Origin: a virus | Reading direction: 5' to 3' (one strand) | Virus record (IMG/VR): IMGVR_UViG_3300024289_000019 | Location: 32,001 to 96,000 of that record | DNA: 64,000 bases | Shown here: piece after piece, positions 6,301 through 56,921 of the stretch | Numbering within the stretch: position 1 is the stretch's first letter | How the letters are laid out: each line of letters opens with the position of its first letter | Notes under the pieces: generated by a model | Seen by the model: only the letters and a program-made list of their open reading frames with translations | What the model was told of the DNA's origin: nothing | Database searches by the model: none | Program-made: the position numbers and the translations under genes

Positions 6301-7612
6301 AGGATCTGGTCCATACTATCACATATGGTATCAAACAACTTCATCAACAACTACAGTGCCATCTTTATCTGGTACTAAAAATAGTGTTGCAGATCAAACT
6401 TCTAGCTCTGCTTCTTCAACAGATAAAGTTTTGTCTCCATCAGCTGGATACGCATATTATTGGTGGGTGAGATCATCAACTACGTTAAATGGAACTGGTG
6501 ATGGAGTTGTAAGCGATTGGAATGGTCCAGTAACAATGTCCCCAATGAATACATCTGCCCCTACATTATCTGGAACAACAAAAGTTGGACAGACACTCAC
6601 ATTTGGTGTTGGCTCGTGGGTTAATGCTACGTATTACGATCTTGAATTATATAGAGGAACCGCAGGAGTTATTACGTCTGAAACACAGTCAAAAGATGCT
6701 GGAAATTCAACAAGCAGCACTTATGTTATTCCTTCTTCAGATTTTACAGATCCCAATAATAGAAAGTATTATAGATCGTTTGCTAAAGGATTTAATCCAT
6801 CATATACAAACACCTCATTTGTTGCTGGTACTGAACTTGGACCACTTGTAAACCTTACCTTGTATACAATTTCATTTGATAGCAAGGGTGGTTCTGCTGT
6901 ATCTGATTTAACTCAGTCTACAGAAGGTGGGTCAATTGCAAAGCCATCAGATCCAACATTGAGTGGTCAAAATTTTGGTGGCTGGTCTACAACCAATGGC
7001 GGTACCACAGCGGTATCTTGGCCAAGAACTCCATCCTCAAATGAAACACTATATGCTATTTGGACTTCAGCAGCATCATATTCTATTACATATAATGGAA
7101 ATGGAAACACTGGTGGAAGTACTACAGCAACAACTGGTAATGGTTCTGTTACTGTAAGAGCAAACGGGTTTACGAGAACAAATTGTACATTTTCAAGTTG
7201 GAATACTTCAGCGGATGGTAGTGGAACAACCTACTCACCTAATGATAGTTATAATTTAACAGCCAACGTTACCTTCTATGCTATCTGGACTGCTGTTACA
7301 AACTCAGCTACTGCACCTACTGGATTTAAATTTGATGGAAATAACCTTCCAACTTCGGGAAGAAAACGATGGTCTTGGACTGGTGTTGGAACAGTTACTG
7401 GTGGAACAGCAACTGGTATTAGGGTACAGATAAGTTCAACAAGTTCTACTTCTGGATTTTCCATAGCAACTGGCTCACCACTCGCTCTAACTGCAAGATC
7501 TTATGATATTGCAGTTAGCCCAGTTACCAGTGCCAGATGGTTAAGAATAGCAATGGAGTATACTGATGGTCTTGGAGTAACTAGGGTTGGAACATATACA
7601 AGTGCACTATAA
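3302..7612 (+). CDS. Large receptor-binding/tail protein with Ig/FN3-like and InlB B-repeat (Listeria-Bacteroides repeat) domains
   Basis: 1436 aa, S/T/Y-rich; repeats such as VTYNYNGG...PTPNNRSGYTFNGWYT and ISFDSKGG...PSDPTLSGQNFGGWST. Confidence 0.7.
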   Translation: MGMYRKTDPDTASGAASNYTDSGKNWRKHSNFFRKTNDNETASLTAVPGRYTDNTRTWRRINSLWMYNFWYDSLSWGWKRIHYKNANVPYATTAPTLRYNSYNGKIIDTYETDAVAWWASDPYQPQWAQMGPGPAGIGQDVWYLDSNGNQVGSSTPTFLWGKDGVWFNSSTATTDGTIVYNSEFATPELAAYSYDDEGNYNGDKLRNSQAVLEAYDRYYIWYKVSKSRTVGGNTLTGQAFSQAVYITRQEPVVTSFVMQSPETVAVGTAKTVTFNIRNEWWRKASQTQSYIEWHELDTPTQTPTYSTLKKSDLLYLTTITTENSTSLQGSYSYTPVGVGKYVLAKLVVKNSYTDKPPVTDIVRTQITSVATAATSGPFTISGVTKNYPSYDSTYGYQRSVSVNIGQSANATKYEVQIEGQYPFDGSGYGGGSYSTWTVLQSYASAPYVNESSRSGGILTYSKNVADYQFYRVTVRASVDGNSATYAYSNNGTSSTPSYVYAEGFGPSTPYISNITTSSNTIGTYINFDVSLSSEGSNRLSYWQYSMDGGYSWNTPSGYDYIAFNGARFYVSSGTYYSFMIRANNMDGFTSSSSNQLSITSFQKPGDPTNVVFHTYNNYEGTIYFTTGSNTQSVQYYLDYESGLQYESKDTYINIGSNDYGSMTISGMSSLSRSYTPYLLAYSGTNKTGGQGNSLSYSPRSLNGTNKPTATFSGTPTVSNQRTVTASWTGGGAANEYYVQLYDYYGGYVVASTTTTSTSASFGPSDGTDYAKTYYFFITPRYRYAGSIYTDGQPAASSNVTTYANLTAPTITDVQTSDGNNWTITVSGGGPYYQVYWLSSTPGPSNTLTNYDAASTSTTISETYSTTGSVYWWARSSTENRGNTTTSGNATIGTFSDWSSYYLAHQVTYNYNGGSGSTSRATVKDSTYTQLPTPNNRSGYTFNGWYTASSGGTYLGGSGSYVYITSTQTIYAQWTLNLSSPTISSVTFNSSNNTWTVNYSGGSGPYYHIWYQTTSSTTTVPSLSGTKNSVADQTSSSASSTDKVLSPSAGYAYYWWVRSSTTLNGTGDGVVSDWNGPVTMSPMNTSAPTLSGTTKVGQTLTFGVGSWVNATYYDLELYRGTAGVITSETQSKDAGNSTSSTYVIPSSDFTDPNNRKYYRSFAKGFNPSYTNTSFVAGTELGPLVNLTLYTISFDSKGGSAVSDLTQSTEGGSIAKPSDPTLSGQNFGGWSTTNGGTTAVSWPRTPSSNETLYAIWTSAASYSITYNGNGNTGGSTTATTGNGSVTVRANGFTRTNCTFSSWNTSADGSGTTYSPNDSYNLTANVTFYAIWTAVTNSATAPTGFKFDGNNLPTSGRKRWSWTGVGTVTGGTATGIRVQISSTSSTSGFSIATGSPLALTARSYDIAVSPVTSARWLRIAMEYTDGLGVTRVGTYTSAL

Positions 7613-22648: not shown

Positions 22649-22791
22649 AATTGTATCAAAGCCAGACATGGTTATATAGAAGATATGTAGTTCAGAAAAA
22701 AACTGTTACGGAAATTGCTGATGAGTGTAAAGTTTCAGCAATGACTATACAGAGATATTTAGAAAAATTTGGAATGATAAAGAGGAGATAG
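22645..22791 (+). CDS. Small HTH protein (not in ORF track)
   Basis: WLYRRYVVQKKTVTEIADECKVSAMTIQRYLEKFG. Confidence 0.7.
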   Translation: MKLYQSQTWLYRRYVVQKKTVTEIADECKVSAMTIQRYLEKFGMIKRR

Positions 22792-31725: not shown

Positions 31726-31956
31726 ATGATTGCTCAAGAAAACAAAGTAAACAAGTTAATTAAAAACTTTAAAACAGATTACCAAGAAGCATTTTGGGAC
31801 GGGTATACACTTGTAGTGTGGAAACGTGATCCTTCTGGCTTTTCAAATAAACGTGGAATGTTTAGAAATGAAACTTGGGGCTTAACAACTAGATTTAATA
31901 TGACAGACGGCGGAGTTTGGGATTTGCCTGAGCGTTATGTCAAATATATTAAATGA
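31726..31956 (+). CDS. Hypothetical protein
   Basis: ORF after tRNA. Confidence 0.55.
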   Translation: MIAQENKVNKLIKNFKTDYQEAFWDGYTLVVWKRDPSGFSNKRGMFRNETWGLTTRFNMTDGGVWDLPERYVKYIK

Positions 31957-32248
31957 TCTAGGCGTAGACTCAGATGATTTTGAATGGTGGCATCTAGCGG
32001 CTTGTAATGGAATGGAAACAAATTTATTTTATGATAAATATGAGTCTGATTTCAATATAGCCAAAAATATAGATGAGATGTGTTTGAGTTGTCCAGTTAT
32101 ACAAGAATGTCTGATTGCTGGATATCAAAACAATGAATATGGTGTATGGGGTGGAATATACTTAAATTCTGGTTCAACAGATAAAGCACGTAATGTGCAC
32201 AAAAAACCAGAAATATGGAAAAGATTAAAAGATAAACATGGACATTAA
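31937..32248 (+). CDS. whiB: WhiB-family transcription factor
   Basis: AAC...CLSCPVIQEC...YGVWGG. Confidence 0.9.
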   Translation: MSNILNDLGVDSDDFEWWHLAACNGMETNLFYDKYESDFNIAKNIDEMCLSCPVIQECLIAGYQNNEYGVWGGIYLNSGSTDKARNVHKKPEIWKRLKDKHGH

Positions 32249-36970: not shown

Positions 36971-38557
36971 ATGAAACCAAGTCAAAAAATTGTTATTGTA
37001 GGTGGAGGATCTGCTGGCTGGATGGCAGCCTCATCATTGGTAAGTCAATTAGAATCAGCAGACATTACATTAATTGAAAGCCCTTATGTACCATCAATTG
37101 GAGTAGGGGAAAGCACACTTGCTGGGCTACCAGCCTGGTTAAGAGCAATAGGCGTAGACCATAAAGACTTTATGGAGTTTACTGACGCATCATATAAATT
37201 TAGTATTAGGTTTGTTGATTTCCATAAGCTTGGCGACGGAGGATTTCATTACCCATTTGGACATCCAACACTAGAAAATTGCCAACTTCCAGGCGCAAAC
37301 GATTGGCATGTAATGAAGTTACTTTTGCCAGAAACTACAACAACACAAAGTTATGTAGATTCATTATTTCCTCAATCGGTACTGTTTAACAACAGAAAGT
37401 TAAAAAATCCTAAAGACGGCGAACTTGGACCATTCAGATTAGACAGAGATTACGCATTGCATTTTGATGCAATTAAATTTGCTGAATGGCTTTCTGAAAG
37501 ATTTGCAAAGCCGAGAGGCGTCAAGCACATAGAAGCAAATGTAAATGATATTATTACAAATGAAAATGGAATTGAAAAAATAATTCTTGAAGACGGTACA
37601 GAAGTATTTGCTGACATATTTGTTGACTGTACAGGATTTAAGAGCATGTTGCTTGGAAAAGCAATGAATGAGCCTTTTGTAAGTTGGAGCGATAGACTTC
37701 CTGTAAATCATGCTTGGGCAGTACAATTACCATATGAAAATCCAGATGAAGAAGTAGATCTTTACACAAATTGTACAGCATTGGGGCATGGATGGGTATG
37801 GAACGCCCCTTTATATTCTAGAATCGGAACTGGATACGTATATTCGGATAAGTTTACTACAAAAGAAGAAGCCCTAGAAGAATTTAAAGTATATTTAGCT
37901 AAAGATAAGGGGGCTCATCGTGTCCCAGCAGATTCAGCATTTAGACATATTGATTTTAAAACTGGCACATATGCTAGAACTTGGGTAAAAAATGTTGTTG
38001 GAATTGGACTTTCTGCAGCATTCTTAGAGCCACTAGAGTCTAATGGTTTATTCTTTATTCATGAATCCTCAATGATGCTTGCAAGATTGTTGTCTAGAGG
38101 ATATGTTAATGCTATTGATCGTGATTTTTTTAATGGTATAACTAGAAAACACTTTGAATCATTTGCTACATTTTTAGAGTATCATTATTGTTTAAGTTCA
38201 AGAAGAGATACAAAATTCTGGGAATACATGACAACTATGGAAAGAGCTCCAGAACTTTGGAGTGCTCCACCAAATACTCCGTTCCTTGAAGAACTTATAG
38301 ATAAAACTCAAGGTCAGTCTTGGAGGGCAGCAATAGATAGCGGATTCCACTGTATTGCTGTAGGCCATGAGTACTATCCAATATTTAAAGCATCAATTCC
38401 TTATTGGGAGCATGCTAATCATGGAGCAAATTATGAACAAATTGCTGGAAACTTCTATATTAGAACAGAAAAACTACAAAAAAAGTGGAATGATTTTATT
38501 AAAAATGCACCAACTCATTATCAATTCTTAAAGGAGAATTATCATAATGAAAAATAA
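36971..38557 (+). CDS. Flavin-dependent (tryptophan) halogenase family protein
   Basis: GGGSAG FAD motif, IGVGEST, catalytic Lys region ASYKFSI, DCTGF, WVWNAP, FLEPLES. Confidence 0.9.
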   Translation: MKPSQKIVIVGGGSAGWMAASSLVSQLESADITLIESPYVPSIGVGESTLAGLPAWLRAIGVDHKDFMEFTDASYKFSIRFVDFHKLGDGGFHYPFGHPTLENCQLPGANDWHVMKLLLPETTTTQSYVDSLFPQSVLFNNRKLKNPKDGELGPFRLDRDYALHFDAIKFAEWLSERFAKPRGVKHIEANVNDIITNENGIEKIILEDGTEVFADIFVDCTGFKSMLLGKAMNEPFVSWSDRLPVNHAWAVQLPYENPDEEVDLYTNCTALGHGWVWNAPLYSRIGTGYVYSDKFTTKEEALEEFKVYLAKDKGAHRVPADSAFRHIDFKTGTYARTWVKNVVGIGLSAAFLEPLESNGLFFIHESSMMLARLLSRGYVNAIDRDFFNGITRKHFESFATFLEYHYCLSSRRDTKFWEYMTTMERAPELWSAPPNTPFLEELIDKTQGQSWRAAIDSGFHCIAVGHEYYPIFKASIPYWEHANHGANYEQIAGNFYIRTEKLQKKWNDFIKNAPTHYQFLKENYHNEK

Positions 38558-44129: not shown

Positions 44130-44474
44130 CTAGTCATCTAGCCACCCGTCATCATCCAGAGCAACAATGAAGTCATTCTCCCTCATCCAATCTCTGATTG
44201 TCTCCTCCATGATTTCGCCGCCTGTGTCCATGCTAAGACCAAGGCTGTCGGAATCTTCATAGAACTTATCGAAGATTTGTTTTAATGTAACACCTTCTGT
44301 GATTGCTTCATCATAGCCAGTATCAGTGTTGTCGTAGATATCTTTGATGATGTCAAAGCACCATGCCCAACATAACGACGGGAATAGGTCCAGATTGCTC
44401 AACTGCTCATTAATAGATAACAATTGATTAAATGCATCGTCCCTACGTGTTGCTTCTTGTAGATCTAAACTCAT
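44130..44474 (-). CDS. Hypothetical acidic protein
   Basis: ORF in leftward operon. Confidence 0.6.
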   Translation of the reverse strand: MSLDLQEATRRDDAFNQLLSINEQLSNLDLFPSLCWAWCFDIIKDIYDNTDTGYDEAITEGVTLKQIFDKFYEDSDSLGLSMDTGGEIMEETIRDWMRENDFIVALDDDGWLDD

Positions 44475-44734
44475 TTCTTGTCCCTTTCTGCGATTGCAAA
44501 TGATAATGCATATGTAAGGCTATACACATGCGCTAGAGCGTCTACTTGGCCTTCCCAGTACTTCCGCTCCATAGATTCCATAGCGTCGTCATAGTCGTTT
44601 TCCTCTTCGGTCTCTTGGGCCATACGTAGTTCGTCTTCAGCGTCTACCATGAGCACCTTCAATGCACCGTGCAAGATGTCGAGCCCAGATGAACCGTGGT
44701 CCACTTGTCTCTGCAGGCTATCTGTTAGTTCCAT
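44471..44734 (-). CDS. Hypothetical acidic protein
   Basis: AAGGAG RBS and TGTCAG-N10-TATAAT promoter. Confidence 0.6.
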   Translation of the reverse strand: MELTDSLQRQVDHGSSGLDILHGALKVLMVDAEDELRMAQETEEENDYDDAMESMERKYWEGQVDALAHVYSLTYALSFAIAERDKK

Positions 44735-44949
44735 TATTTCTCCTTTGTTTCTTCCATTATATCAAGAGCCACTGACAAAATGTGGTCACAAGCAGATACC
44801 TGGCCACTCGTCCAATTGTATTCAATATCTAATTCAGCAAAGTCTTTTGAGGCGGGGTCCAAAGCATCCATCTGATTAGATAATTGCTCTAAATCCTGGT
44901 TTAAAGACATTATATGTAGTTTGATATATTCAATTAGTTTATGAGACAT
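44734..44949 (-). CDS. Hypothetical protein
   Basis: Shares a W.GQV.A..H motif with the previous gene. Confidence 0.55.
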   Translation of the reverse strand: MSHKLIEYIKLHIMSLNQDLEQLSNQMDALDPASKDFAELDIEYNWTSGQVSACDHILSVALDIMEETKEK

Positions 44950-45074
44950 GGCCTTCCTCCATTAATCCAATTAAAAAGTCGGCGGCTAACCAAACTTCTT
45001 CCTTATCCCTAGAATCAGGTAAAGATTCATGTACATTCAATAAACCCTCAACCATTTCTTCTACATCTTTTAAT

Positions 45075-45329
45075 TTATAACCCAACATTAAAATACTCCT
45101 CATCTTCAGGTGTTAATTCATAGAATAGATTAAACTTAGATTGTAAATATGGGTCTGATGACATTAAAGCAATTTGATAATCTGCATAAAATGTCCCTTC
45201 ATCTAAATTAGAACTATTCCATTGTTCAAATAGATGTTCAGATATTTCAGTAATGACAGCGTCAATTACCATTTGATTCTCATCATCTAAAAATGACCCA
45301 CGGTCATTTAGTTCCAGCCTATCAGCCAT
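45075..45329 (-). CDS. Hypothetical acidic protein
   Basis: ORF overlapping upstream gene. Confidence 0.55.
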   Translation of the reverse strand: MADRLELNDRGSFLDDENQMVIDAVITEISEHLFEQWNSSNLDEGTFYADYQIALMSSDPYLQSKFNLFYELTPEDEEYFNVGL

Positions 45330-46074
45330 TTACTTGCTCCATTCTATAATCAGGGACATGCTCGGAATCCAAGTATATCTTATGGGTCTGACATTCTTTG
45401 ACACAATCAAGGTCTGCCTCGCCTAAATAATTACAAGCAGAGCAAATTTGACCACAATCATTATCGCAATAATCTAATGTATCTTCTGCATCACAATCTC
45501 TACATTTAGATTCATATTCAGAACCTTCTAATTGTTCACCACGAAGGAACTCGCATTCGCCACCCCAACCTGTCTCTTCTTCATAACTAAGAGTAAATAG
45601 GAGTGCTGGATATTGTGCTGATAATTTAGCAATGGCAGGAAACGGTGGAGACCAAGCAGTATTGAAATTATAATAAACTACAAGGTTCTCTCCATTTTCA
45701 GTAGGACCCTCCATATATGTTTCAGGATATTCATCATCTGAAGATACAGCGACATCCCATTTTGTGCCCCATTCACGAACATTGAATGAATACCAGTCAT
45801 TTGTTTGGAATTTCATTTGCTCTTCAATAGGCAATTTATGGTCGGGTTGCTGAAGATACTCATACTCAGTAATACCTGCTTGTAAATGATTATAGATATT
45901 ATGAAAAGCAAATACAGGATTAGGATATGTAGTTTGTTTCTTTTGCATTTGTCCAGTTTCCATGTTCCATGAATCATGGACCTGTGCAAATGGCTTATTC
46001 AATTGTGCTACTAATGTATTGACAAGTTGTGGATTTCCCTCTATGGTCAATCCGTTATATACCCAGTTCGGCAT
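45322..46074 (-). CDS. DUF1281/YubB ferredoxin-like family protein
   Basis: MPNW..N, WYSFNVREWGTKWD, FNTAWSPP, LSYEE. Confidence 0.75.
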   Translation of the reverse strand: MPNWVYNGLTIEGNPQLVNTLVAQLNKPFAQVHDSWNMETGQMQKKQTTYPNPVFAFHNIYNHLQAGITEYEYLQQPDHKLPIEEQMKFQTNDWYSFNVREWGTKWDVAVSSDDEYPETYMEGPTENGENLVVYYNFNTAWSPPFPAIAKLSAQYPALLFTLSYEEETGWGGECEFLRGEQLEGSEYESKCRDCDAEDTLDYCDNDCGQICSACNYLGEADLDCVKECQTHKIYLDSEHVPDYRMEQVNG

Positions 46075-46254
46075 ATATATTCCTTTCGTTCGGTTATTGG
46101 CATAATTATAATGCCTACCACCGACATTTGTCTATATGATGTGGATCACATAAAATGACTAATAGGTTTATTTATCTTATATATTGAGAATTTCAGTGAA
46201 TATAGTTGACAAACGTAAAAAGATCAATCTATCCTCCGCTTTTACGGGCAGCTA

Positions 46255-46375
46255 TAAAAAAAGCGGGGGCCCCAACAGTCTCTCCCTCTGTTGGGCCCCC
46301 TGTGTTTGGCTGCATCCACACTATGCATATTTAAAGACTGGGGCGAAAGGAACCCTGAAAGCCTCACCAAACGTT
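46255..46375 (-). ncRNA. Predicted small RNA with anti-Shine-Dalgarno loop
   Basis: TGATATAAT upstream, GUUUGG/CCAAAC closing stem, loop UUCCUUUCG, GC-rich terminator plus U tract. Confidence 0.6.
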
Positions 46376-46388
46376 ATTTATCATTATA

Positions 46389-46754
46389 TCATACTGAGGC
46401 AGGTTCAAGAGGTGGTACAGTTATACCAGCATGATAAGCGATAAACTCTTCCCATGAATGTCCTTCAACGGTTTTGCCAACCATATCAACATCCACGGTA
46501 AAATCCCAAGCAGCAAAATTGCTAGGTTTAGATACTGCGCCAATGCCATAACCAGTTTCGTCCAGGACCTCATGCTGAATCATATGACTAATAATCATAC
46601 GAATGCAATATGGTGTGTCATTCCACCTTGGACGAGCATGTGCTAATGCTGTAGCAAGTTTAACTTGCCATTCATCTTCTCCCCAATGTGAATATAACCA
46701 AACTGCAGGCTCATTTTCGCCTTCGTTAAAAATATAATTAATTCGTGCTCCCAC
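46389..46754 (-). CDS. Hypothetical phage protein
   Basis: MGARINY...LYSHWG motif. Confidence 0.65.
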   Translation of the reverse strand: MGARINYIFNEGENEPAVWLYSHWGEDEWQVKLATALAHARPRWNDTPYCIRMIISHMIQHEVLDETGYGIGAVSKPSNFAAWDFTVDVDMVGKTVEGHSWEEFIAYHAGITVPPLEPASV

Positions 46755-46944
46755 TGATTTCCGCCTTTTCTCTAGTGTCCTCTTCGATTTTGTCCAATTC
46801 TACTACTTCATAGGACCATTTGTCAAGGCCCTCTTTGAACTCGTTGTAGTGGTGTCCACAGAAAAATAAATCTCCAGCTAAACCTTTAGCCTGATACATT
46901 GCTTTTGCTGTAACACATTTATCACAATTTAATCTTTCTGTCAT
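46738..46944 (-). CDS. Small zinc-binding protein
   Basis: CDKC...LFFCGHH. Confidence 0.65.
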   Translation of the reverse strand: MTERLNCDKCVTAKAMYQAKGLAGDLFFCGHHYNEFKEGLDKWSYEVVELDKIEEDTREKAEISGSTN

Positions 46945-47089
46945 AGTTTTCCGCCTTCTATCATGTCTGATAATCTATCTAAGATCCAAGAGTCGATATC
47001 GTTGATGTCAATCTCACGTAATTTCTCCATGATTTCATCACGGGCATATTTGTAACCATCATCCCAACCGCTCTTATAATCTGACATAT

Positions 47090-47302
47090 TTATCTCCTTG
47101 TGTATCCAGTTTCTTCGTATTCTGATACATAAGTTTCTGTTAAATTAAACTTATCACGAATACGACTTACTTTCTCTATGCTACCAGTTCCAATGTTGAA
47201 TGTCAATGGTGGCATGAAATGTGGGTCCAGTCCAATTACTTGTGCCTCCCAATAGGCCATCTCTAAAGACAGCCTATCAGGAGCGGTAAGTTCAAAGTAC
47301 AT
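47090..47302 (-). CDS. Hypothetical protein
   Basis: ORF in leftward operon. Confidence 0.55.
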   Translation of the reverse strand: MYFELTAPDRLSLEMAYWEAQVIGLDPHFMPPLTFNIGTGSIEKVSRIRDKFNLTETYVSEYEETGYTRR

Positions 47303-47952
47303 TACCAGCGCACATCCGCATCTTCAACATCAAATGATTGAACAACAACATCTCCGTTGTATGCATCAAGAGTTAAAGTATCTTGTAAGAAGTAACGTGC
47401 ATCAAAATCTTCTACGTCCTCCATTGGAATATCGTATTCAACCTCAAATGACATGCTTCCAGTAATACGAACTGTTTGCTTTGGTTCATGACCAAGAATT
47501 TCGCAAAGGTCTCTAAGGACATCTTCCTTTTCAACGTTTGGGTTGTACCAGCCATCAGTATCTAGATTATTAATAATACGACGTATTTGGTCGTTACTAA
47601 TAGTTAGTTGTTTTTCAAGGCGGACCAAGGAATCTAATTTACCTTCTAGGTCCACAGTCTTGATACTTGGGTAAGTTATATCATAACCATTAATAGACTT
47701 ATATGTTGTAAGTGCATTAGGGTTATAGGTCTCAGGGACCGTTGATGTTTCTTGCATTTCTTTCCTTTCGTTAATTGGTGTAATTGTAGCAGGCTCCACC
47801 GACAAAAGGTTGGGCCTACGTCCACATGGACATGTGACATTCATCACACTTCCAGATGGGAATCCGAATTTATCTGATGATGTTACTTCAATTAAAGTAT
47901 CACATTCATCAGGATCGCATGCATATGTATTTTTAGTCCAGGTTTCTGACAT
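47302..47952 (-). CDS. Hypothetical protein with internal promoter and RBS (second start near 47757)
   Basis: N-terminal Cys motif; internal TGTCGG-N10-TACAAT and AACGAAAGGAA before an in-frame ATG. Confidence 0.55.
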   Translation of the reverse strand: MSETWTKNTYACDPDECDTLIEVTSSDKFGFPSGSVMNVTCPCGRRPNLLSVEPATITPINERKEMQETSTVPETYNPNALTTYKSINGYDITYPSIKTVDLEGKLDSLVRLEKQLTISNDQIRRIINNLDTDGWYNPNVEKEDVLRDLCEILGHEPKQTVRITGSMSFEVEYDIPMEDVEDFDARYFLQDTLTLDAYNGDVVVQSFDVEDADVRW

Positions 47953-48173
47953 TAGACATCCGCCATTTGCTTGTGGTATGCTTTGAGGTCCATAACATTA
48001 ATGTTAAGTTCCTCTTCAGGGTACTCATTAATCAAGAAGTTTAATGCTTCTCCTGCTGACTTAAAGTCAGTATAATTAGTTGAATAACCATATCCATATA
48101 TGGTTGCTTCCCAGCAGTCTACCCCTCCAGGAGAGACAGAATATTCCATTTCATATATCTGTGCGTTTATCAT
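47952..48173 (-). CDS. Hypothetical protein, probably leaderless
   Basis: ATG lies just downstream of the TGTCAG-N10-TATAAT promoter at 48181-48202. Confidence 0.5.
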   Translation of the reverse strand: MINAQIYEMEYSVSPGGVDCWEATIYGYGYSTNYTDFKSAGEALNFLINEYPEEELNINVMDLKAYHKQMADV

Positions 48174-48322
48174 GGCCCAAATTATACACGAGACGACTGA
48201 CATTTACAAGCATTTCCAGGGATTTTTTCTAGATTCCCGTATTATCTACATCACATCCGTAAAAGCTCTGGGCGATCCTTAGTATATTGCGGGCGTCTCA
48301 TTATGTGAAACATTTTATCTTG

Positions 48323-48397
48323 CGATGCGTACGGGATTTGAACCCGTGATCTCCACAGTGACAGTGTGGTGAAATAACCAAGCTATTCTAACGCACC
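48323..48397 (-). tRNA. tRNA-Asp (GTC)
   Basis: Reverse complement folds as a cloverleaf: GGTGCGT/ACGCATC, CCACA-CTGTCAC-TGTGG, GGTTCAAATCC. Confidence 0.9.
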
Positions 48398-48442
48398 AAA
48401 TAAAAACGGGGGAGATTTATCTCCCCCGCTAGTTTATCATTC

Positions 48443-49447
48443 TTAGAATGATTTTACTAACTTGAGAAGTTTATTTTTCTCAGCAGTAAGAATTGGGTCA
48501 AAGCCACTCGCACCCGCCATTAGCGTTTCAGAATTGCCACGACCAGAACGGAAATAATCAAGGCGTTCAGTAAGCGCATTGAAAGCACCCCATTTTGTTC
48601 CCTTGATATTAGCGTTAGTTGGTGAGTTATGATAAAGTTCATCAATCAAGATAACTTTATTTTCCCACTTTTTCAAAGCACCCTTAGCGTCTTTTTCAGG
48701 CTTAGGATAAATTGTGCGAATTAGTTTAGAGAATTCGGCATCAGTAATTTCCTGCTTGAAAAGTTCCTGCGCTTCTTTCTCGAATTCATCAAAGTATCCA
48801 AGAGCAAGACCCAAAGTTTCACGAGCAACTTGAATTCTGCCTTCGACAGATTGAGTATGGCGAATTTTGAATGATTGCTTAGCATTACGCATAGCAAGAT
48901 TCAAAGTGTTTTGGCATACAACACGAACAGGTGTAATTGCTGCCTGAACAGCAACAGAACCATCATGTGAAGTCCATACGATTAGATAAAGTTTTGTTTG
49001 GTCATTAGCACCTTGTGGGTCTAACACCATAGTTCTAGGAACATCAACAGTTCCGAAAACTACTTTACCATTTTTGAGAGAACCAGCAGATTCCCAGCGA
49101 CACTCAGGGTTAGCATCATGAATGTTATCTGCGAAAGCAAATAATTCTTCATTCTGAACAGGCTTGTATCGCTTACCAACAGTAGCGAGAACATCAGTTC
49201 CACCATTGAATGGATTTGTGCGAATAACTAACTGAGCGTTAGATACATCATTCCAAGATTCTGAAATGTGGTCGGTCAATGGAGATAAGCGAACATTCCA
49301 ATTAGAAAGTTTTGCTTCATCGAGCATTGTTTGAGTAGTTACATTTTCATCTTGATTGAAAATGCGATTAGCGAGATTGTGCCATGCGGGTTTTCCACGC
49401 AAAGCAAAGGCAACTTCGTTGCCATTTGTTTCTAGGTTATGAGCCAT
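48443..49447 (-). CDS. DUF932 family (phage/plasmid-like protein TIGR03299)
   Basis: MAHNLE...PAWH, YKPVQNEE, ESAGSL, TSHDGS, TPVRVVCQNTL, IRHT, GTKWGAFNA. Confidence 0.88.
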   Translation of the reverse strand: MAHNLETNGNEVAFALRGKPAWHNLANRIFNQDENVTTQTMLDEAKLSNWNVRLSPLTDHISESWNDVSNAQLVIRTNPFNGGTDVLATVGKRYKPVQNEELFAFADNIHDANPECRWESAGSLKNGKVVFGTVDVPRTMVLDPQGANDQTKLYLIVWTSHDGSVAVQAAITPVRVVCQNTLNLAMRNAKQSFKIRHTQSVEGRIQVARETLGLALGYFDEFEKEAQELFKQEITDAEFSKLIRTIYPKPEKDAKGALKKWENKVILIDELYHNSPTNANIKGTKWGAFNALTERLDYFRSGRGNSETLMAGASGFDPILTAEKNKLLKLVKSF

Positions 49448-49686
49448 AGATTTTTCCTTTCATTAGTTAGATTGAGCCTAAGTATAACAGACCCCACCGA
49501 CATTGTAAATAGTTAGATAGACATTGTGGGCAAATCGGACATGTGATCAATATCATAAATTCCTGTGGTTATCCACAGTTTGCCGTAACGCTGTGGATAA
49601 CCCCGCAAGTTGTTGCGGGCCACAAGATCGGGGAAGCTGGGGCGGGAATCTAGATGATTACACAGTTCAAACCCGCCCCAAGATTA

Positions 49687-49869
49687 TTACTTACCGACTT
49701 TTACCATAGCATAACGCAAACCGCTGCCAGTATCTAATCTTAATTTAGTTAGATTAGGTCTGATAGAAATTATTTCGCTAATAGTGCCAGTAATTCCTGA
49801 TTTACCAGTTGTAAAAACATCGCCTTTGCGATAGAAGCGACCTTTCTTGGTATCTAGAATTGGTGACAT
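49687..49869 (-). CDS. Small SH3/KOW-like protein
   Basis: Y.KGD.FTT.KS..TG.I.EI; paralog of 50441..50620. Confidence 0.6.
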   Translation of the reverse strand: MSPILDTKKGRFYRKGDVFTTGKSGITGTISEIISIRPNLTKLRLDTGSGLRYAMVKVGK

Positions 49870-49895
49870 TTTATTTCCTTTCGTTTGTTGGTTGG

Positions 49896-49923
49896 TGAGT
49901 AGTTTATAGTCATACTCAGGACT
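49896..49923 (-). ncRNA. Predicted H-type pseudoknot element, copy 2
   Basis: AGUC/GACU and UGAGUA/UACUCA stems, UAAAC loop. Confidence 0.55.
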
Positions 49924-49934
49924 TTGTTCGTTAT

Positions 49935-50357
49935 TTATAGATAACGAGCAATAGCGTTGTAAGTAGAAGTAGAAACTACTTCCTCATCGGTCATCTTGAG
50001 AATACGAATAGCGTTCTCAATCTCCTCTACCATTTCGTTATACTGCCAATCGTGGAAAGTCTGAAAGTCTTTCTTTGGTTCAGCAGGTAGTTCAATAGCA
50101 TTAGCAGGAAGGTAGAAATCTACATTTATCCTTCCGTCATAACGCTTGTTAGCAGACAAGTTTTCTGCCTTAGAGATAGCAGTTAGAGCAAGTTTAGCGA
50201 CTTCCTTGTTCCACTTCTCTTGGGCTTTCTCAAACTTAGCCTCGTTAGTTGCTTGGTTCTCTCTATCCTTTTGGAGTTGAGCGAGTTTTGTTTCTAAGGC
50301 TTTGATAACCTTAGTTGTAGCGATTTTTACATTTATCGCTTTTCCGTTTCTTGCCAT
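49935..50357 (-). CDS. Hypothetical coiled-coil protein
   Basis: Strong RBS and motif promoter. Confidence 0.7.
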   Translation of the reverse strand: MARNGKAINVKIATTKVIKALETKLAQLQKDRENQATNEAKFEKAQEKWNKEVAKLALTAISKAENLSANKRYDGRINVDFYLPANAIELPAEPKKDFQTFHDWQYNEMVEEIENAIRILKMTDEEVVSTSTYNAIARYL

Positions 50358-50440
50358 TTATTTATTTTCCTTTCGTTGTTTGTTTGGGAGTTTATTATAG
50401 CAGGGACTACCGACATTTTCGGTAATCCCTGCTTGTCTAT

Positions 50441-50620
50441 TTAGTTAGATAGACTTTCCGCTGAGATGGTTGTCCAGCGAGTTTCTTTTGTTGGTAGTTC
50501 CAACAAAACACGCACCGAGCCAGATGCGTTAGGCACAATCTCTTTGATTACGCCTGTTTTCTTTGACTTTAGGGTGGTGAATAAATCGCCAACCTTGTAA
50601 GTATAACCATTTATGGTCAT
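50441..50620 (-). CDS. Small SH3/KOW-like protein (not in ORF track)
   Basis: 59 aa MTINGYTYKVGDLFTTLKSKKTGVIKEIVP...; GAAAGGA RBS. Confidence 0.65.
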   Translation of the reverse strand: MTINGYTYKVGDLFTTLKSKKTGVIKEIVPNASGSVRVLLELPTKETRWTTISAESLSN

Positions 50621-50698
50621 TTTGCTTCCTTTCTGTTAGTAGTTGGGTTGTATTTTAGCATACCCCACCGACAATCGGCAAGGTATAGCGGTGTGAGA

Positions 50699-50965
50699 TT
50701 AGTCACACCAAGCCTCTAGGTGGTGCTGTTCGATAATAGCCCATGCGGGTGCGGTATCTCTGCCTTTATAGGATACGCCTTCGGGCATTGGTATCTCACG
50801 ATCAGTTTCGCCCTCATCATAAGCAAAAATAGCCTCAATACAAGGTTCTACCATGCTAGTAGGAACGGGCGGGTAATGATTAGCAGTTAGATGAATTGAG
50901 ATAGCAGTAGATAAATCTAATCCTAAATCATAGTCAGCTAAATCGTGTGCGAAATTACTTCCCAT
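50699..50965 (-). CDS. Hypothetical phage protein
   Basis: HLTANHYPPVP...HHLEAW. Confidence 0.65.
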   Translation of the reverse strand: MGSNFAHDLADYDLGLDLSTAISIHLTANHYPPVPTSMVEPCIEAIFAYDEGETDREIPMPEGVSYKGRDTAPAWAIIEQHHLEAWCD

Positions 50966-51236
50966 TATTTTCCTCCAATACTGAGTTTTTCATTTGTTCC
51001 ATTTCGTCAATAGTTTCGATTAGTTCCCTGAATTGTGTTTCAGTTAGTAATACTTTAGTAATTTTATCAGTTGTAGCAGAAGCAATAGCAGTAGCATACA
51101 TAAACATAGCCCTAGCGAATTGTTCTTGGTCTAAGTCATGGCGAGAATGGACAATAAAAGAAGCGAGTTCCATTTGTTCATCGCCAATAATTCCCTCTTG
51201 AGTAGCCTCAAGTAGAGCAGAAGCAGTAGATAACAT
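50955..51236 (-). CDS. Hypothetical protein
   Basis: RBS and motif promoter. Confidence 0.65.
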   Translation of the reverse strand: MLSTASALLEATQEGIIGDEQMELASFIVHSRHDLDQEQFARAMFMYATAIASATTDKITKVLLTETQFRELIETIDEMEQMKNSVLEENNGK

Positions 51237-51291
51237 TTATTTCCTTTCGTTGTGGTAGTGGGCTAGATTATACACTAGCCCACCGACATTA

Positions 51292-51546
51292 TTAGGCTAG
51301 GGCTAAGATAGCCTGAGAAGCACCGTCATTTACACGGGCGAGTTCTGCCTCTAACTCATTACGAGTAAATTTGGCAGGATTACCGATAAGTTCTGATACC
51401 ATGCGAGAATTTTCCTCAACAAAGATACCTGCGGGCAGGCGCTTTACTGCTGAATAGAAAGAGCCTTGTGGGTCAAGCATAGAAACAAATTCTACGCCTG
51501 CAACGGAGAATGGGTACTTTACCCAGTTAGTTGTATCTAAAGACAT
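51292..51546 (-). CDS. Hypothetical protein
   Basis: RBS and motif promoter. Confidence 0.65.
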   Translation of the reverse strand: MSLDTTNWVKYPFSVAGVEFVSMLDPQGSFYSAVKRLPAGIFVEENSRMVSELIGNPAKFTRNELEAELARVNDGASQAILALA

Positions 51547-51805
51547 TTATTTTCCTTTCGTTTGTCGTTAGACTAGGAATTATACACGAAGCCTGCGACA
51601 TTTTACATTTGAGTATCGGCGTGTCGGGCATTTGTGAGATTTCTCACAAAATCCCGTGATTATCCACAGGCCCACTTAAACATGTGGAAAACCCCGCACA
51701 TACTGCGGGCCTTTTATATTTTAAAAAATAAATATAAAAATAAAAGTAACGGAGAAATTAAAAAACCGATAAAGATCAACGTTGTCAGAGCTGCAAAAAA
51801 TTCTA

Positions 51806-52528
51806 TCATTTTTTACTCGCAGAAAATCTAACATCCGCTTTACCGTACACACATAAGCCGCATGATACGCATGCGCTGCCATTGGTGGAGATAAGTGGAA
51901 TTTGTTTATTATTTTCAGGACATTTTGCACCAGGCTTACCAATTAATTCTTTCATAGTATTTTCGGTGACTGCAAAAGTTTTACCTAGATACGCTAATTT
52001 AATTCCAGAATTATTTTTGCGTAAGTCATGAGCAATTTCTTTATTCTCATCATCGGTAGAAAAATAAAGAGAGAGGTTAGAAATATCCTTAAGGATAAGC
52101 GCTGCAGACTTTACACGAGTATATACCCAAAATTGCACATCGGGATTATTTTGGATAACCGCTTTCCACGCATATGCATAGGTATCATTAAAGAAATCGC
52201 CATCCCAGTGTATACGGAATAACTTTTCTGCATTACGCTTTTCACAATCTGCAACAAAATCAGCAATCATATCGCTAAGCAATAGAGACATGGTATCCAT
52301 ATCTGCATTGCGTAGCAATTCCCAGTTATGCAGAAGAGTATTCTTTACTCCTTTGTATACTCTTTCAAGTTTTCCTGCATAGCAAACGCTTTCACAAACA
52401 CTAGTGGCACCAGGACACGAGAAATCTTTTCCAGCAGGTAATCCAAAAGTGTTAGCGATTGTTGGGGTTTTTCCATTTTTTGAGACAGCATTAGCGACCT
52501 TCCTATCATTAGACCTTTTTAGTTTCAT
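51806..52528 (-). CDS. Gene product 88 (GP88)-family protein
   Basis: SCPGATSVCESVCYA, FRIHWDGDF, FWVYTR, CVSCGLC. Confidence 0.75.
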   Translation of the reverse strand: MKLKRSNDRKVANAVSKNGKTPTIANTFGLPAGKDFSCPGATSVCESVCYAGKLERVYKGVKNTLLHNWELLRNADMDTMSLLLSDMIADFVADCEKRNAEKLFRIHWDGDFFNDTYAYAWKAVIQNNPDVQFWVYTRVKSAALILKDISNLSLYFSTDDENKEIAHDLRKNNSGIKLAYLGKTFAVTENTMKELIGKPGAKCPENNKQIPLISTNGSACVSCGLCVYGKADVRFSASKK

Positions 52529-52576
52529 TATACACCTTTCGTTATGGGCCCTATTGTAGCAGGGCCCACCGACATT

Positions 52577-53074
52577 TTACCAAGAGGACTGATAGTAGTA
52601 GGATAAATCCTTATACTCATCATTTTCTACTAGTGGGGCTATCTGCTTGATAGTGTCCTTGATATCAGACCAATAGTATTCATCGATATCATATGAGCCG
52701 AAAAAGAAACCAGCAGACGGCATTAGTTCGCTAGGGTCTTTCTTGAATAAGGCTTGACGGCAGGTAGTAAGTAATTCTTTTAGTTTATCACGAGATACAT
52801 AGTATTCACCGCAATTATCTTCACCGCCTTGTACATTATCGACAAACCATTTGTGTATCTGATTAGCCTTACGCCAATACGCCACATTTACGCTAACATC
52901 TACGCCATAGATACTTTCAGTATCTACAAGAGTATCAACACCAGCAGCATTTACTACATCATTCCATTGTGGATAAGTTGCAGCAGAGTATTTAGTGTCT
53001 AAATCTCTATCTAATTTAGACCAGTCAATTTTAGCAATATGCTTACGAGCAGAGAGGTACATATCTAAACCCAT
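52577..53074 (-). CDS. Conserved phage protein
   Basis: MGLDMYL...YWRKANQIHKWF...GFFFGS...YYQSSW. Confidence 0.75.
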   Translation of the reverse strand: MGLDMYLSARKHIAKIDWSKLDRDLDTKYSAATYPQWNDVVNAAGVDTLVDTESIYGVDVSVNVAYWRKANQIHKWFVDNVQGGEDNCGEYYVSRDKLKELLTTCRQALFKKDPSELMPSAGFFFGSYDIDEYYWSDIKDTIKQIAPLVENDEYKDLSYYYQSSW

Positions 53075-53368
53075 TATTTTATTCCTTTCGTTAGGTTAGG
53101 CTGCTATTATAGCGGAAGCCACCGACAAATTCCACGACACGCCGAAAAAATTCCTGTGAAAAAAATCACATCTACTTAACGACACGCCCGACCCCGCAAG
53201 ATCTGCGGGCTTGTTGAAATTTCAACTAATCCCAATTAGTTTTCAAACCAGCTGCGGTTTTTTTATGTTTTGTTTTTCTTGAATAAATTTTTTTAGATTT
53301 TATTGGCGTTGCGGCATTTGACCTCCGCAATTCCAAAATTCTTTTTATTCTTTCTTTATTTGGTAATT

Positions 53369-53560
53369 TCATTTTGTTCCTAACTTTGGTAATTTGTAAT
53401 TTGAAGCGTCATAGAATTTATTTGCGTCAAATCTTGGATTATCTTTCGCAAACATTTCCGCAAAATCTATAACCATTTTTGAAAAAACGGCTGGGTGAGT
53501 TTTATCGCTAACATAGTTTAGAATTTTAGCGGTTTCAACATAGTGTTTTTTAGATGTCAT
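53369..53560 (-). CDS. Hypothetical phage protein
   Basis: KKHY...FAKDNPRFD motif. Confidence 0.65.
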   Translation of the reverse strand: MTSKKHYVETAKILNYVSDKTHPAVFSKMVIDFAEMFAKDNPRFDANKFYDASNYKLPKLGTK

Positions 53561-53763
53561 TTTTCCACGACCCTTCTGCCTTCACGATAAAAGATTTTGG
53601 TATAGCATTTTCCGCTAGGTGTGTAGAGATTTACAGTTGAGTAATCCATAGCAAATCCCCAATCCACATAACTAGCAAAACTCTTGTGAGCCTCTAGTTC
53701 ATCAGCGATTTGTTGTGTGAAGTGTGGAGAATTTTCATCATAAGCAACAGTTATTTTATACAT
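53557..53763 (-). CDS. Hypothetical protein
   Basis: ORF in leftward operon. Confidence 0.6.
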   Translation of the reverse strand: MYKITVAYDENSPHFTQQIADELEAHKSFASYVDWGFAMDYSTVNLYTPSGKCYTKIFYREGRRVVEK

Positions 53764-53984
53764 TAGTTAGCCTCCTGAGTAGCAAAAATTGAAAGTTCAT
53801 TTTCGGAAAGCAATCCGTTATCCCAAATCACATCTCCGTCATTATCTAAAATAAGTTCATAGGGATTACACTCGCAAGTTTCATAGTCAAAATAATCCTC
53901 GCCATTTCCCCAATAAATAGCACCCATACCACGACAGGCATCACAATTTTTTATTGCTCTTAGAGCAGTTTCAAGTTTATCCAT
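53763..53984 (-). CDS. Small zinc-binding protein
   Basis: CDACRGMG...CEC; paralog at 55729..55848. Confidence 0.6.
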   Translation of the reverse strand: MDKLETALRAIKNCDACRGMGAIYWGNGEDYFDYETCECNPYELILDNDGDVIWDNGLLSENELSIFATQEAN

Positions 53985-54144
53985 TTTCTTTTTCCTTTCT
54001 TTCTTGAATTGTAGCAGTTAGCACCGACAACGCTTCCGCCTTAGAGGCTTCACGCTGGGCGTTGATAAAGTTTCTGAATTCGATCAAATCCATTTTAGTT
54101 TTCCTTTCGTTTATTGGTTAGATTATAGCGGAAGCCACCGACAT

Positions 54145-54357
54145 TTAGTCGGGAAGCCTAACCGCAACAGTAGCCCACTCATCTTTGAGCGAACCCGTAG
54201 GGCGGTAGCGAATTGAATAGGCTTCGTAGCCCTCAGATAAATAGACATCATCTCGCTTTTCCGCAAAGTTGATAATTCCGCCATTGTATCTCCTACGCAT
54301 AGAAGTAGGCGCATAGTATTGGTCAATTAGTAAATCAACAATAGAATATGAACGCAT
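54145..54357 (-). CDS. Hypothetical protein
   Basis: Paralog of 56010..56204. Confidence 0.6.
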   Translation of the reverse strand: MRSYSIVDLLIDQYYAPTSMRRRYNGGIINFAEKRDDVYLSEGYEAYSIRYRPTGSLKDEWATVAVRLPD

Positions 54358-54881
54358 TATCCTAGTATCCTTTCTCCATAGTAATTCTCAAAATCAGCAA
54401 TAGTCATCAGACCTTTATACTCATTACAAAATCCGCAGAATTTAGTATCCGCAGAGTATTCAGTTTCGCAGAAGCAACAAATTAGTTTCATTTAGTTATC
54501 CTTTCTAACTTTCTTGGCGAAAGTTTATCAGAAAGCACCGACATTTTCAAATCCAAATCGTAATTTCTCAAATAGTAAGACGGCGTGTCGTGTGATAAAA
54601 ATCACAAATTTTTTTTGTGATAAATCTCACAAAATTCCCGTGATTTTTAAAATTGGACATAAAAGACAAATCGCCCCCACACTACGTACGGGCGTGATCG
54701 AGCTTTGTCAAGACGACACGCCGCTTAGGCGGTGTGAGTTGCCTCACATTCCGCAGAGCATTCGGCGGGAAGGCTAAAGAGATACTTTAGCAGAGCCTTA
54801 CGCTCAGACATAGATATTTCAGGGTGATATTGTTTTACACCACCATGTTGATATTCAAAGATGATTTTATCTAAAGTTTTT

Positions 54882-55088
54882 TTAGTTAGCATTTACTTTA
54901 TTCCTTTCTAAATCTTTATGTGCGTAGTAGCAACGCATTTCGTGAAGTCTAATCCACTTTGAGATTTGAAATCTTGAACAGATGTAGCATTTATGCCACT
55001 TTTGTTTTAGCCAAATTTTATTGTTATCTGAATTGTATAAATCCAACATTGTGTGTTGTTTTTCGCATTTACATTTTTTGTTAGTCAT
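54882..55088 (-). CDS. Small Cys/His-rich protein
   Basis: GAAAGG RBS and motif promoter. Confidence 0.5.
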   Translation of the reverse strand: MTNKKCKCEKQHTMLDLYNSDNNKIWLKQKWHKCYICSRFQISKWIRLHEMRCYYAHKDLERNKVNAN

Positions 55089-55728
55089 TTTCTAAACCAA
55101 CCTTTCTAACTTTCTAATAACTGAAGTCTAGCAGGGGGGTCTGACATTCTACTGACCAGTATGCGTACAAATCGGACATTTCGTTTTGTGATTTACACCA
55201 CATTTTCCAGGCATTTAGACAAAACGGACATAAGGGTACAAAACGCCCGCAAAAGACTGCGGGCAGCTGCCGATTTTGTCAAATCGACACGCCGCTTTTA
55301 TTTTATTTTTTTATTTCTTTTGTTGCCAATCTGATCGTGTAAATTACGCTAAGAATTAGCGCAATTTGAACAGCGGAAGTTAGAAGTCTATTCATTAGAA
55401 CATTTCACCGCTTTCTAGTAGAGCATCAAACTCAGCATCAATTTCTTTTTCTAGCAGAACATCAAGAGAGATTTCATCTGCCTCATCATCAAAGTATTCA
55501 TTTACTACATAACTATCTTGAATACTTTCATATTTATATTCACTAGGGTTTCTTTCCCAACTCATAGCATACATTATTTATTTTCCTTTCTTATTGCGGT
55601 AAATCTTATACGCTACCACCGACAAAATAACTAGACCTAGACCTAGCCAAGAAGCGTAGAAATCAAATTGAGCGGTCTCAAAGGCAATTCCATCTGACCC
55701 TAATTCTATTAGTAAGTATCTATCCATT

Positions 55729-55848
55729 TTAGTTATTCTCCTTTATACATTCGCAAGTTTCTACATCATAGTCTAAGTCATTACCCCAAAAGATAAGACC
55801 TACGCCATTACATTCATCACATTCAATTCTAGTTAGAGAGTTTATCAT
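55729..55848 (-). CDS. 39 aa zinc-binding peptide (not in ORF track)
   Basis: MINSLTRIECDECNGVGLIFWGNDLDYDVETCEC; AACGAAAGGAA RBS. Confidence 0.6.
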   Translation of the reverse strand: MINSLTRIECDECNGVGLIFWGNDLDYDVETCECIKENN

Positions 55849-55884
55849 TTATTTATTTCCTTTCGTTAGTGTGATAGTAGGTCT

Positions 55885-55924
55885 TATTTGCTAGGCTCAC
55901 CTTTCGGATTATTTGCTAGGCTCA
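55885..55924. repeat. Two 16-bp direct repeats TTATTTGCTAGGCTCA inside an inverted repeat
   Basis: Seen directly; flanked by ATAGTAGG...CCTACTAT. Confidence 0.9.
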
Positions 55925-56009
55925 TACCTACTATTCAATTTTGTTATGTCGTTAGACTATCAGACCTGACCGACATTTTCAAGCCGACACGCCGAAGCGT
56001 GGGTGTGAC

Positions 56010-56204
56010 TTATGCCACACTTACCGCTACTGAGCGGTAGGTATAACCTCCGCCATTCTTACGGATTTCTACAAGATACGCCTCAGCGTTTTCATACCAT
56101 ACACAAGACGGATGTTTTTCAGCCGATACGATTTCGCCCTCAACGGAGCGGGAACGATAAGTTTTACCTACTAGGAGGTTTTCGATAGAGTATAGATTAG
56201 CCAT
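56010..56204 (-). CDS. Hypothetical protein
   Basis: GAAAGGAG RBS; paralog of 54145..54357. Confidence 0.6.
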   Translation of the reverse strand: MANLYSIENLLVGKTYRSRSVEGEIVSAEKHPSCVWYENAEAYLVEIRKNGGGYTYRSVAVSVA

Positions 56205-56921
56205 TATGGTAATCTCCTTTCATTAAGTTAATCGGTATTATTTCAGATTTATTAAGTTTTTTCAAGTCGACACGCCGTTAAGAGAGTGTGATTTGTATCA
56301 CTTGTGGATACAATCACTTTCAATCTCATGACCGAATTCATCTACTAATTCTTCATAGATTTCATCTAGATAATCAAGATAATCAGACATTATTTCTCCT
56401 TTCATTATGTATAGAATACTAACATAGACCACCGACATTTTGACCCGTTTTTCGGGCGTGTCGCAAAACTATTTTTGTGAGATACCTCACATTATGGGCG
56501 CACTATCTATTTTTAAAAAATTTTAAAATAACGTGTATCATACAAATTAAAAATATATTAACATTTTAGAAAAATGAAATTACTAGTTGACTAAAATAAT
56601 ATTAGCATGATAAGATTTATCCAATGTCAGCTAATAGAGTATATATCTGCGATAAATGCGGAGCGGAAATCCAAGTAAGATCTAATTTTGTGTTAAAAAC
56701 ACACTACAATCACATCAGGGAATGTAAAGCTCAATAAAAGCGAAAATCCCTTCGGAGGCGGATCCTAGGGGATTTTCTAATGTAAGGGAGAATGGTGGTT
56801 CTCAACCAAACACTTCTATAATAATAACATATGTGTAATTTGTAGTCAACTAGGAAGAGTATCTGCTATATCAACTGCATCATCTATAGTACGTGGATGC
56901 TCTGATGTGCAATCTCCACAA

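Follow-up and report, generated by a model that had tools for sequence, protein, structure and literature searches.

The subject of this report is a block of small leftward genes in an uncultured phage, examined in a 64,000-nucleotide (nt) stretch of DNA (the window) that covers positions 32001–96000 of the 112,301-bp IMG/VR record IMGVR_UViG_3300024289_000019, which CheckV rates as complete. We found that this block carries an array of about 19 promoter-like sites equal, in sequence and spacing, to the published consensus of promoters dependent on PafBC, a WYL-domain activator. These similarities make it rather probable, in our judgement, that host PafBC activated by single-stranded DNA (ssDNA) drives the block by sigma adaptation, possibly with modulation by host Crp. 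A broader proposal, whose chances we put at about even, is that a large and widely distributed family of freshwater actinophages swapped the −35 promoters of a terminal small-gene block for host PafBC boxes lacking LexA operators and added phased CRP-type sites, which would turn the host ssDNA alarm, and perhaps the cyclic AMP state of the host, into a phage switch. All coordinates are positions in the window.

A minus-strand promoter array with fixed spacing

The strict pattern TGTCRG-N10-TANNNT matched the window 18 times, on the minus strand only and between positions 44756 and 56437; the shuffled window sequences that served to estimate the background contained 0.97 matches on average and never more than 4. 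In the whole record, 20 copies lay on the minus strand versus none on the plus strand, and the two strict copies that fall elsewhere than in the block appear fortuitous. An initial annotation, made from the sequence alone, had described 18 sites with a strict 10-bp spacing, an extended TG at most of them and no motif ahead of the plus-strand genes, for which it proposed TTGACA-type promoters. The spacing was upheld across the record, where N10 gave the 20 matches and any other spacing from 4 to 17 gave five at most. The site contexts likewise agreed with the claim about TG, which stands one base ahead of the −10 at most window sites. No strict copy precedes a plus-strand gene anywhere in the record, and several of these genes (replication region, tRNA) have TTGACA-N17–19-TAnnnT promoters instead. 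Seventeen of the 18 coordinates were exact; the remaining one, 51595, proved to be TGTCGC-N10-TATAAT rather than TGTC(G/A)G, and a strict site at 45372–45393 had been omitted. The array consists of the 18 strict sites and the single TGTCGC variant, about 19 sites in all, with GTC invariant throughout. Single-base variants of the TGTCRG core were rare, and a generic sigma-70 scan of the block did not rise above background (69 matches versus 62 in shuffles).

The layout of the promoters is mostly an extended near-consensus −10 (TGnTAtAAT) with a TGTC(A/G)G box exactly 10 nt upstream, at about −28 to −23. The box is usually followed directly by TGG, and a rarer subclass reads TGTCAG(A/T)CCC. At the 11 sites assigned by a simple gene call, the distance from the end of the −10 to the ATG is 24–36 nt, with GAAAGGA ahead of the ATG; the context of the remaining sites is similar, the outliers being 55975 (105 nt to the ATG) and 45393 (43 nt). 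From these contexts, the sites are predicted to be promoters that serve some 17 short transcription units of the leftward small-gene block, whose features are as follows.

44130–56438, minus strand: block of ~40 small leftward genes, ~12 kb, nearly all without assigned function
44756–44777, minus strand: PafBC-type promoter, TGTCAGTGG, with TATAAT
45372–45393, minus strand: strict match inside the open reading frame 45322–46074, 43 nt ahead of an ATG at 45329; a weaker candidate
46105–46126, minus strand: PafBC-type promoter of a 250-aa gene, with TAGACA 18 nt upstream of the −10
47783–47804, minus strand: PafBC-type promoter
48181–48202, minus strand: PafBC-type promoter, TGTCAGTCG
48322–48397, minus strand: tRNA-Asp in the block
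48443–49447, minus strand: DUF932 gene in the block
49481–49502, minus strand: PafBC-type promoter of the DUF932 gene; among relatives the spacer varies, the box and the −10 do not
50394–50415, minus strand: PafBC-type promoter
50652–50673, minus strand: PafBC-type promoter
51267–51288, minus strand: PafBC-type promoter
51579–51600, minus strand: variant promoter TGTCGC-N10-TATAAT (annotated initially as 51595)
51806–52528, minus strand: GP88-family gene in the block
52553–52574, minus strand: PafBC-type promoter of the GP88-family gene
53106–53127, minus strand: PafBC-type promoter
54008–54029, minus strand: PafBC-type promoter
54122–54143, minus strand: PafBC-type promoter
54522–54543, minus strand: PafBC-type promoter
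55125–55146, minus strand: PafBC-type promoter, TGTCAGACCCC subclass
55603–55624, minus strand: PafBC-type promoter
55954–55975, minus strand: PafBC-type promoter with a long 105-nt leader
56416–56437, minus strand: PafBC-type promoter, first in the array

The sites match PafBC-dependent promoters

PafBC levels are constant under stress. The published in vivo consensus of PafBC promoters is tGTCgg(N10)tA(N3)T; PafBC-dependent promoters carry a −26 element and no −35, and the GTC of the element is read by two arginines of PafB (PMC8635444). PafBC occupies the space between SigA domain 4 and the DNA, an arrangement termed "sigma adaptation", and promoters of this type are not used by RNA polymerase (RNAP) with SigA alone (PMC8635444). 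The activation of PafBC is attributed to the binding of ssDNA (PMC11804915).

Comparison with the mycobacterial motif, which the initial annotation had proposed as a check, showed that the phage sites equal this consensus in sequence and spacing. They share with the PafBC-dependent (RecA-NDp, recA P1-type) promoters the TGTCRG box, the distance of exactly 10 nt, the TAnnnT and the invariant GTC; the family logo described below shows no conserved −35 hexamer. The phage sites differ in forming an array of about 19 ahead of genes without assigned function on a lytic-type phage, in having a stronger −10 (TGnTATAAT) and CRP-type sites upstream, and in lacking a LexA operator; no LexA box was found in the phage window. 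The original proposal of a PafBC regulon gained support as far as the promoter-like character of the sites, the actinophage nature of the record and the presence of pafBC in the candidate host order are concerned; that PafBC reads the sites is what we infer, and so are the trigger, the time of expression and the identity of the host.

Conservation among uncultured relatives

A scan of the phage and its relatives had also been suggested at the outset. Among 80 IMG/VR loci around DUF932 homologues of 87–96% identity (1.31 Mb), it returned 1148 sites on the gene strand versus 6 on the other, with 4–6 matches for reversed-pattern controls. The family logo reads A/T-rich (−4 to −1), TGTC(A 88%, G 12%)G, T, G/C, G/C, TG, one base and TAtAAT, and the TG ahead of the −10 is present in 76% of the family sites. 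A scan of IMG/VR for one exact promoter form gave more than 115 stretches, some of which carry 7–15 one-strand sites, have no DNA similarity to the phage and encode block proteins that are 25–58% identical. Arrays were retained in relatives with a DUF932 identity of about 50%.

Orthologous promoters of DUF932 drift in the spacer but not in the box or the −10, and the strict pattern is present in 4 of 6 distant relatives. One distant relative (L255) keeps the box together with a GATAAT −10 and has TTGACA added upstream; another (L318) has a TTGACA −35 and no box. On this comparison, the promoter class at the DUF932 locus seems to switch in evolution.

A terminal-repeat counterpart in cultured Streptomyces phages

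The BE phages of Streptomyces carry a DUF932 homologue (51% identical) at 1.3–2.7 kb on the minus strand, twice per record and therefore within the long direct terminal repeat; in Jay2Jay, a member of the BE cluster, 23 small leftward genes lie in the terminal-repeat region. The terminal-repeat promoters of the BE cluster serve a homologous leftward small-gene block with its own promoter for each gene, but they are of the −35 type, whereas the freshwater phage has the −26 box. The −26 box therefore seems to have taken the place of the −35 in the freshwater lineage. No end repeats are present in the assembly of the phage record, the BE homologue being duplicated at both ends. The host-takeover module of SPO1 and the pre-early region of T5 are early-gene modules in long terminal repeats that use ordinary host sigma promoters. 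They resemble the present block in their dense small genes without assigned function, in their many closely spaced promoters and in the location of the BE homologue in a terminal repeat, and differ from it in those ordinary promoters and in the end repeats, which the assembly of this record does not show.

The phage and its candidate hosts

The phage encodes DnaB, a primase, a DnaE-type polymerase, WhiB and six tRNAs, and the G+C content of the window is 35%. The DnaE is 56% identical to that of Streptomyces phages of the Stanwilliamsviridae, and both DnaE and DUF932 are nearest to Streptomyces phages. WhiB is an accepted marker of actinobacterial phages:

31937–32248, plus strand: phage whiB gene, marker of an actinobacterial host

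Because of WhiB and the kinship to Streptomyces phages, we take the host to be an actinobacterium. A search of bacterial genomes with the phage WhiB gave no relative, and all 358 WhiB homologues fall in the phage family and thus offer no clue to the host. The block is contained in riverine metagenomes, and a near-identity DNA search with it against cultured phages gave no match.

The whole phage contains no WYL domain, no PafC-type helix-turn-helix (HTH_PafC) and no PafB/PafC-like frame, which extends to the entire record the earlier statement that no WYL protein is visible in the window. Sigma70_r2 and a Crp-type helix-turn-helix (HTH) were likewise not found in the whole phage, and a weak sigma r4-like HTH at 22669–22755 was sub-threshold (16.4 bits). 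No sigma factor or known adaptor gene was detected, in searches that did not include models of MotA and AsiA.

The candidate host order comprises small freshwater actinobacterial genomes (1.2–1.5 Mb, many single-contig), 41 of which were sampled; their size would agree with 'Ca. Nanopelagicales'. It was reached through a match of the exact phage-type pattern in G001, a 1.3-Mb metagenome-assembled genome (MAG) of Actinomycetota. The matched 2.9-kb contig (C195) is a related-phage fragment of 75–78% nt identity with four PafBC-type promoters; it was probably misbinned into this MAG and inflates its motif count, and because it is phage DNA the host link is weak. The check for pafBC suggested at the outset, made here in a candidate order, found tandem WYL genes (pafB-pafC) in all 41 genomes. 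In one genome (G007), the pair consists of a WYL+WCX protein adjoining an HTH_PafC+WYL+WCX protein; the former matches M. smegmatis PafB (7P5X) with an E value of 1e-38, its RMFERDK helix intact with both arginines.

The plain 12-base motif was not enriched genome-wide in five candidate hosts and is therefore not a general promoter feature. The TGG-extended box gave 120 matches versus 9 for the control, with at least one in each of the 41 genomes and 4 of the 120 on the phage contig in G001. It precedes host recA (3 genomes), radA, and LysM and DUF6504 genes, and in several cases a LexA box follows; the LysM and DUF6504 host genes with the box are among those LexA-boxed. The TGTCAG(A/T)CCC subclass, also present in the phage, occurred 16 times in the candidate order versus 0 times for the control.

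Several of the host PafBC-type promoters end 6–7 nt ahead of the ATG (for example at radA), a position that suggests leaderless mRNAs; the phage promoters are instead followed by an 18–30-nt leader and a strong ribosome site. Several boxes ahead of small genes and of genes for VWA, TPR and Rce1/CPBP-like proteins were found in two host islands (477–506 kb of contig C1 in G007 and 822–825 kb of contig C1 in G043), which may be damage-induced islands or defence genes.

CRP-type sites upstream of the promoters

CRP/GlxR-type palindromes are also in excess in the block, with 13 copies versus 2.55 expected.

46135–56491: 13 CRP/GlxR-type palindromes (TGTGA-N6-TCACA, at most 1 mismatch) upstream of array promoters

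Across the family, 467 of 783 distinct promoters (60%) have a CRP-type site, and the centres of these sites peak at −54.5, −64.5, −74.5 and −84.5 relative to the presumed start, a spacing of one helical turn. All 5 of the candidate hosts checked have genes of the Crp family, and the phage has none. The positions of the sites lie ~3 bp off the classical class I positions of E. coli. Nine copies of CGACACGCCG (at most 1 mismatch; 0.24 expected) were found on either strand at 51617–56463, between the CRP-type sites and the promoters.

Proposed mechanism and alternative explanations

According to the mechanism that we favour, host PafBC, constantly present, would be activated by ssDNA and would link the box to domain 4 of the housekeeping sigma, upon which host RNAP could fire the phage promoters. 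The ssDNA might arise from entry of the phage DNA, from nuclease attack or from the onset of replication. Entry or nuclease attack would make the block early; a trigger at replication onset, with replication proceeding from the genes with canonical promoters, would make it delayed early.

Several observations weigh against this mechanism. The −10 elements are near consensus and carry TG, and for that reason the promoters might fire without an activator. A partial −35-like hexamer is present at 6 of the 18 window sites; sites 46126, 49502, 54543 and 55975 have a 5/6 hexamer at 17–18-nt spacing; the family logo is without a conserved −35 hexamer. RNA from the block consists of metatranscriptome contigs without readable starts, strand or levels, and some of them extend upstream of the promoters. 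On the host side, the sole direct link is the phage contig that had been assigned to a candidate-order MAG, the G+C content of the phage is at least 10 points below that of the candidate-order genomes, and the exact 17-base phage-type pattern had 42 matches in 185,579 genomes, near chance, with 5 in Actinomycetota. Among the cultured Streptomyces relatives, whose hosts likewise possess PafBC, promoters of the Jay2Jay type have an ordinary −35/−10 organization (TTGTAT/TTGCAT, N17–18, tgTAGACT), and the PafBC-type motif was not enriched in BillNye and Peebs, the two that were scanned.

The promoters could be extended −10 promoters independent of PafBC, perhaps aided by CRP/GlxR, with the box bound by a repressor or another host factor, or tuning promoter strength. 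The near-consensus −10 with TG in 76% of the family sites, the phased CRP-type sites at 60% of the family promoters together with the Crp-family genes of the candidate hosts, and the replacement of the box by TTGACA at the DUF932 promoter of some relatives are all in keeping with such promoters. However, more than 1100 sites share the box at a single invariable spacing, which calls for a factor that recognizes the sequence at −26, out of reach of sigma domain 4, and PafBC is the sole described reader of such a box; we regard independence from PafBC as unlikely. A different reader, namely a phage-encoded or virion-borne activator of whatever family that binds the TGTCRG box and bridges to host sigma, would reduce the likeness to PafBC sites to mimicry or coincidence. 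T4 middle promoters likewise combine a −10 with a box further upstream in place of the −35, and the PafBC study itself likens PafBC promoters to them (PMC8635444); most phage proteins are without known function, and the weak sigma r4-like HTH lies at 22669–22755. Yet host recA and radA are preceded by the same box with the same flank (TGG or (A/T)CCC) at exactly the same spacing, and no WYL, PafB/PafC-like or sigma gene was found in the phage; we consider an activator of its own unlikely.

The array could also act as a PafBC sponge, many boxes on the replicating genome diverting PafBC and polymerase from host repair and defence genes. The ~19 boxes of each genome, a number that a terminal repeat might double, would suit such a role, and on the host side a 2025 study is reported to tie pafBC to resistance against mycobacteriophages. 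Nearly every box, however, is joined to a −10, a ribosome-binding site and an open reading frame, which a pure decoy would not need, and we consider a sponge alone very unlikely, although it can coexist with activation of the block by PafBC.

Relation to known systems and implications

Activation of the block by host PafBC would have familiar counterparts. In T4 middle promoters, with a MotA box at −30 and a sigma70 −10, a class of phage genes likewise has its −35 replaced by an adaptor-read box; T4, however, has its own adaptor (MotA/AsiA) and remodels sigma, whereas no adaptor was found here and the box is the site of a host regulator. Phage genes under host LexA/SOS control are known mostly from temperate phages, where relief of repression leads to prophage induction. 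Phage expression would in both cases be coupled to host DNA-damage sensing, but here through an activator pathway, in a window from which LexA boxes are absent; the cultured relatives of this phage are, as far as is known, lytic.

Our search of the literature on PafBC or RecA-NDp together with phage promoters found no description of such promoters. New as well are the finding that cultured Streptomyces relatives carry the homologous block, with ordinary −35 promoters, in their long terminal repeat; the absence from the phage boxes of LexA operators such as those downstream of several host boxes; and the helically phased CRP-type sites at 60% of the family promoters. If PafBC reads the sites, the phage would time a whole gene class with the host ssDNA alarm, using ssDNA made by the infection itself. 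This would be the first virus to use sigma adaptation by a host WYL activator and a new viral route to programming transcription without a factor of its own. It would also extend sigma adaptation beyond DNA repair and bear on the WYL regulators of anti-phage defence. Phages of this family abound in river and lake water, and their hosts probably include some of the bacteria that are most numerous in fresh water.

Other elements of the block and the genome

A small-RNA candidate at 46255–46395 on the minus strand has an extended −10 and a strong terminator, and its hairpin loop UCCUUUC is complementary to the GAAAGGA ribosome site shared by the block; its fold was not better than those of shuffled sequences (z −1.18). 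The tRNA-Asp gene at 48322–48397 (minus strand) lies directly downstream of the DUF932 gene and of a terminator-like hairpin at 48405–48430. Elsewhere on the phage, a gene of the tryptophan-halogenase family (E 5e-102) is located at 36971–38557 (plus strand), and a 1436-aa protein with Listeria-Bacteroides repeats is encoded at 3302–7612 (plus strand).

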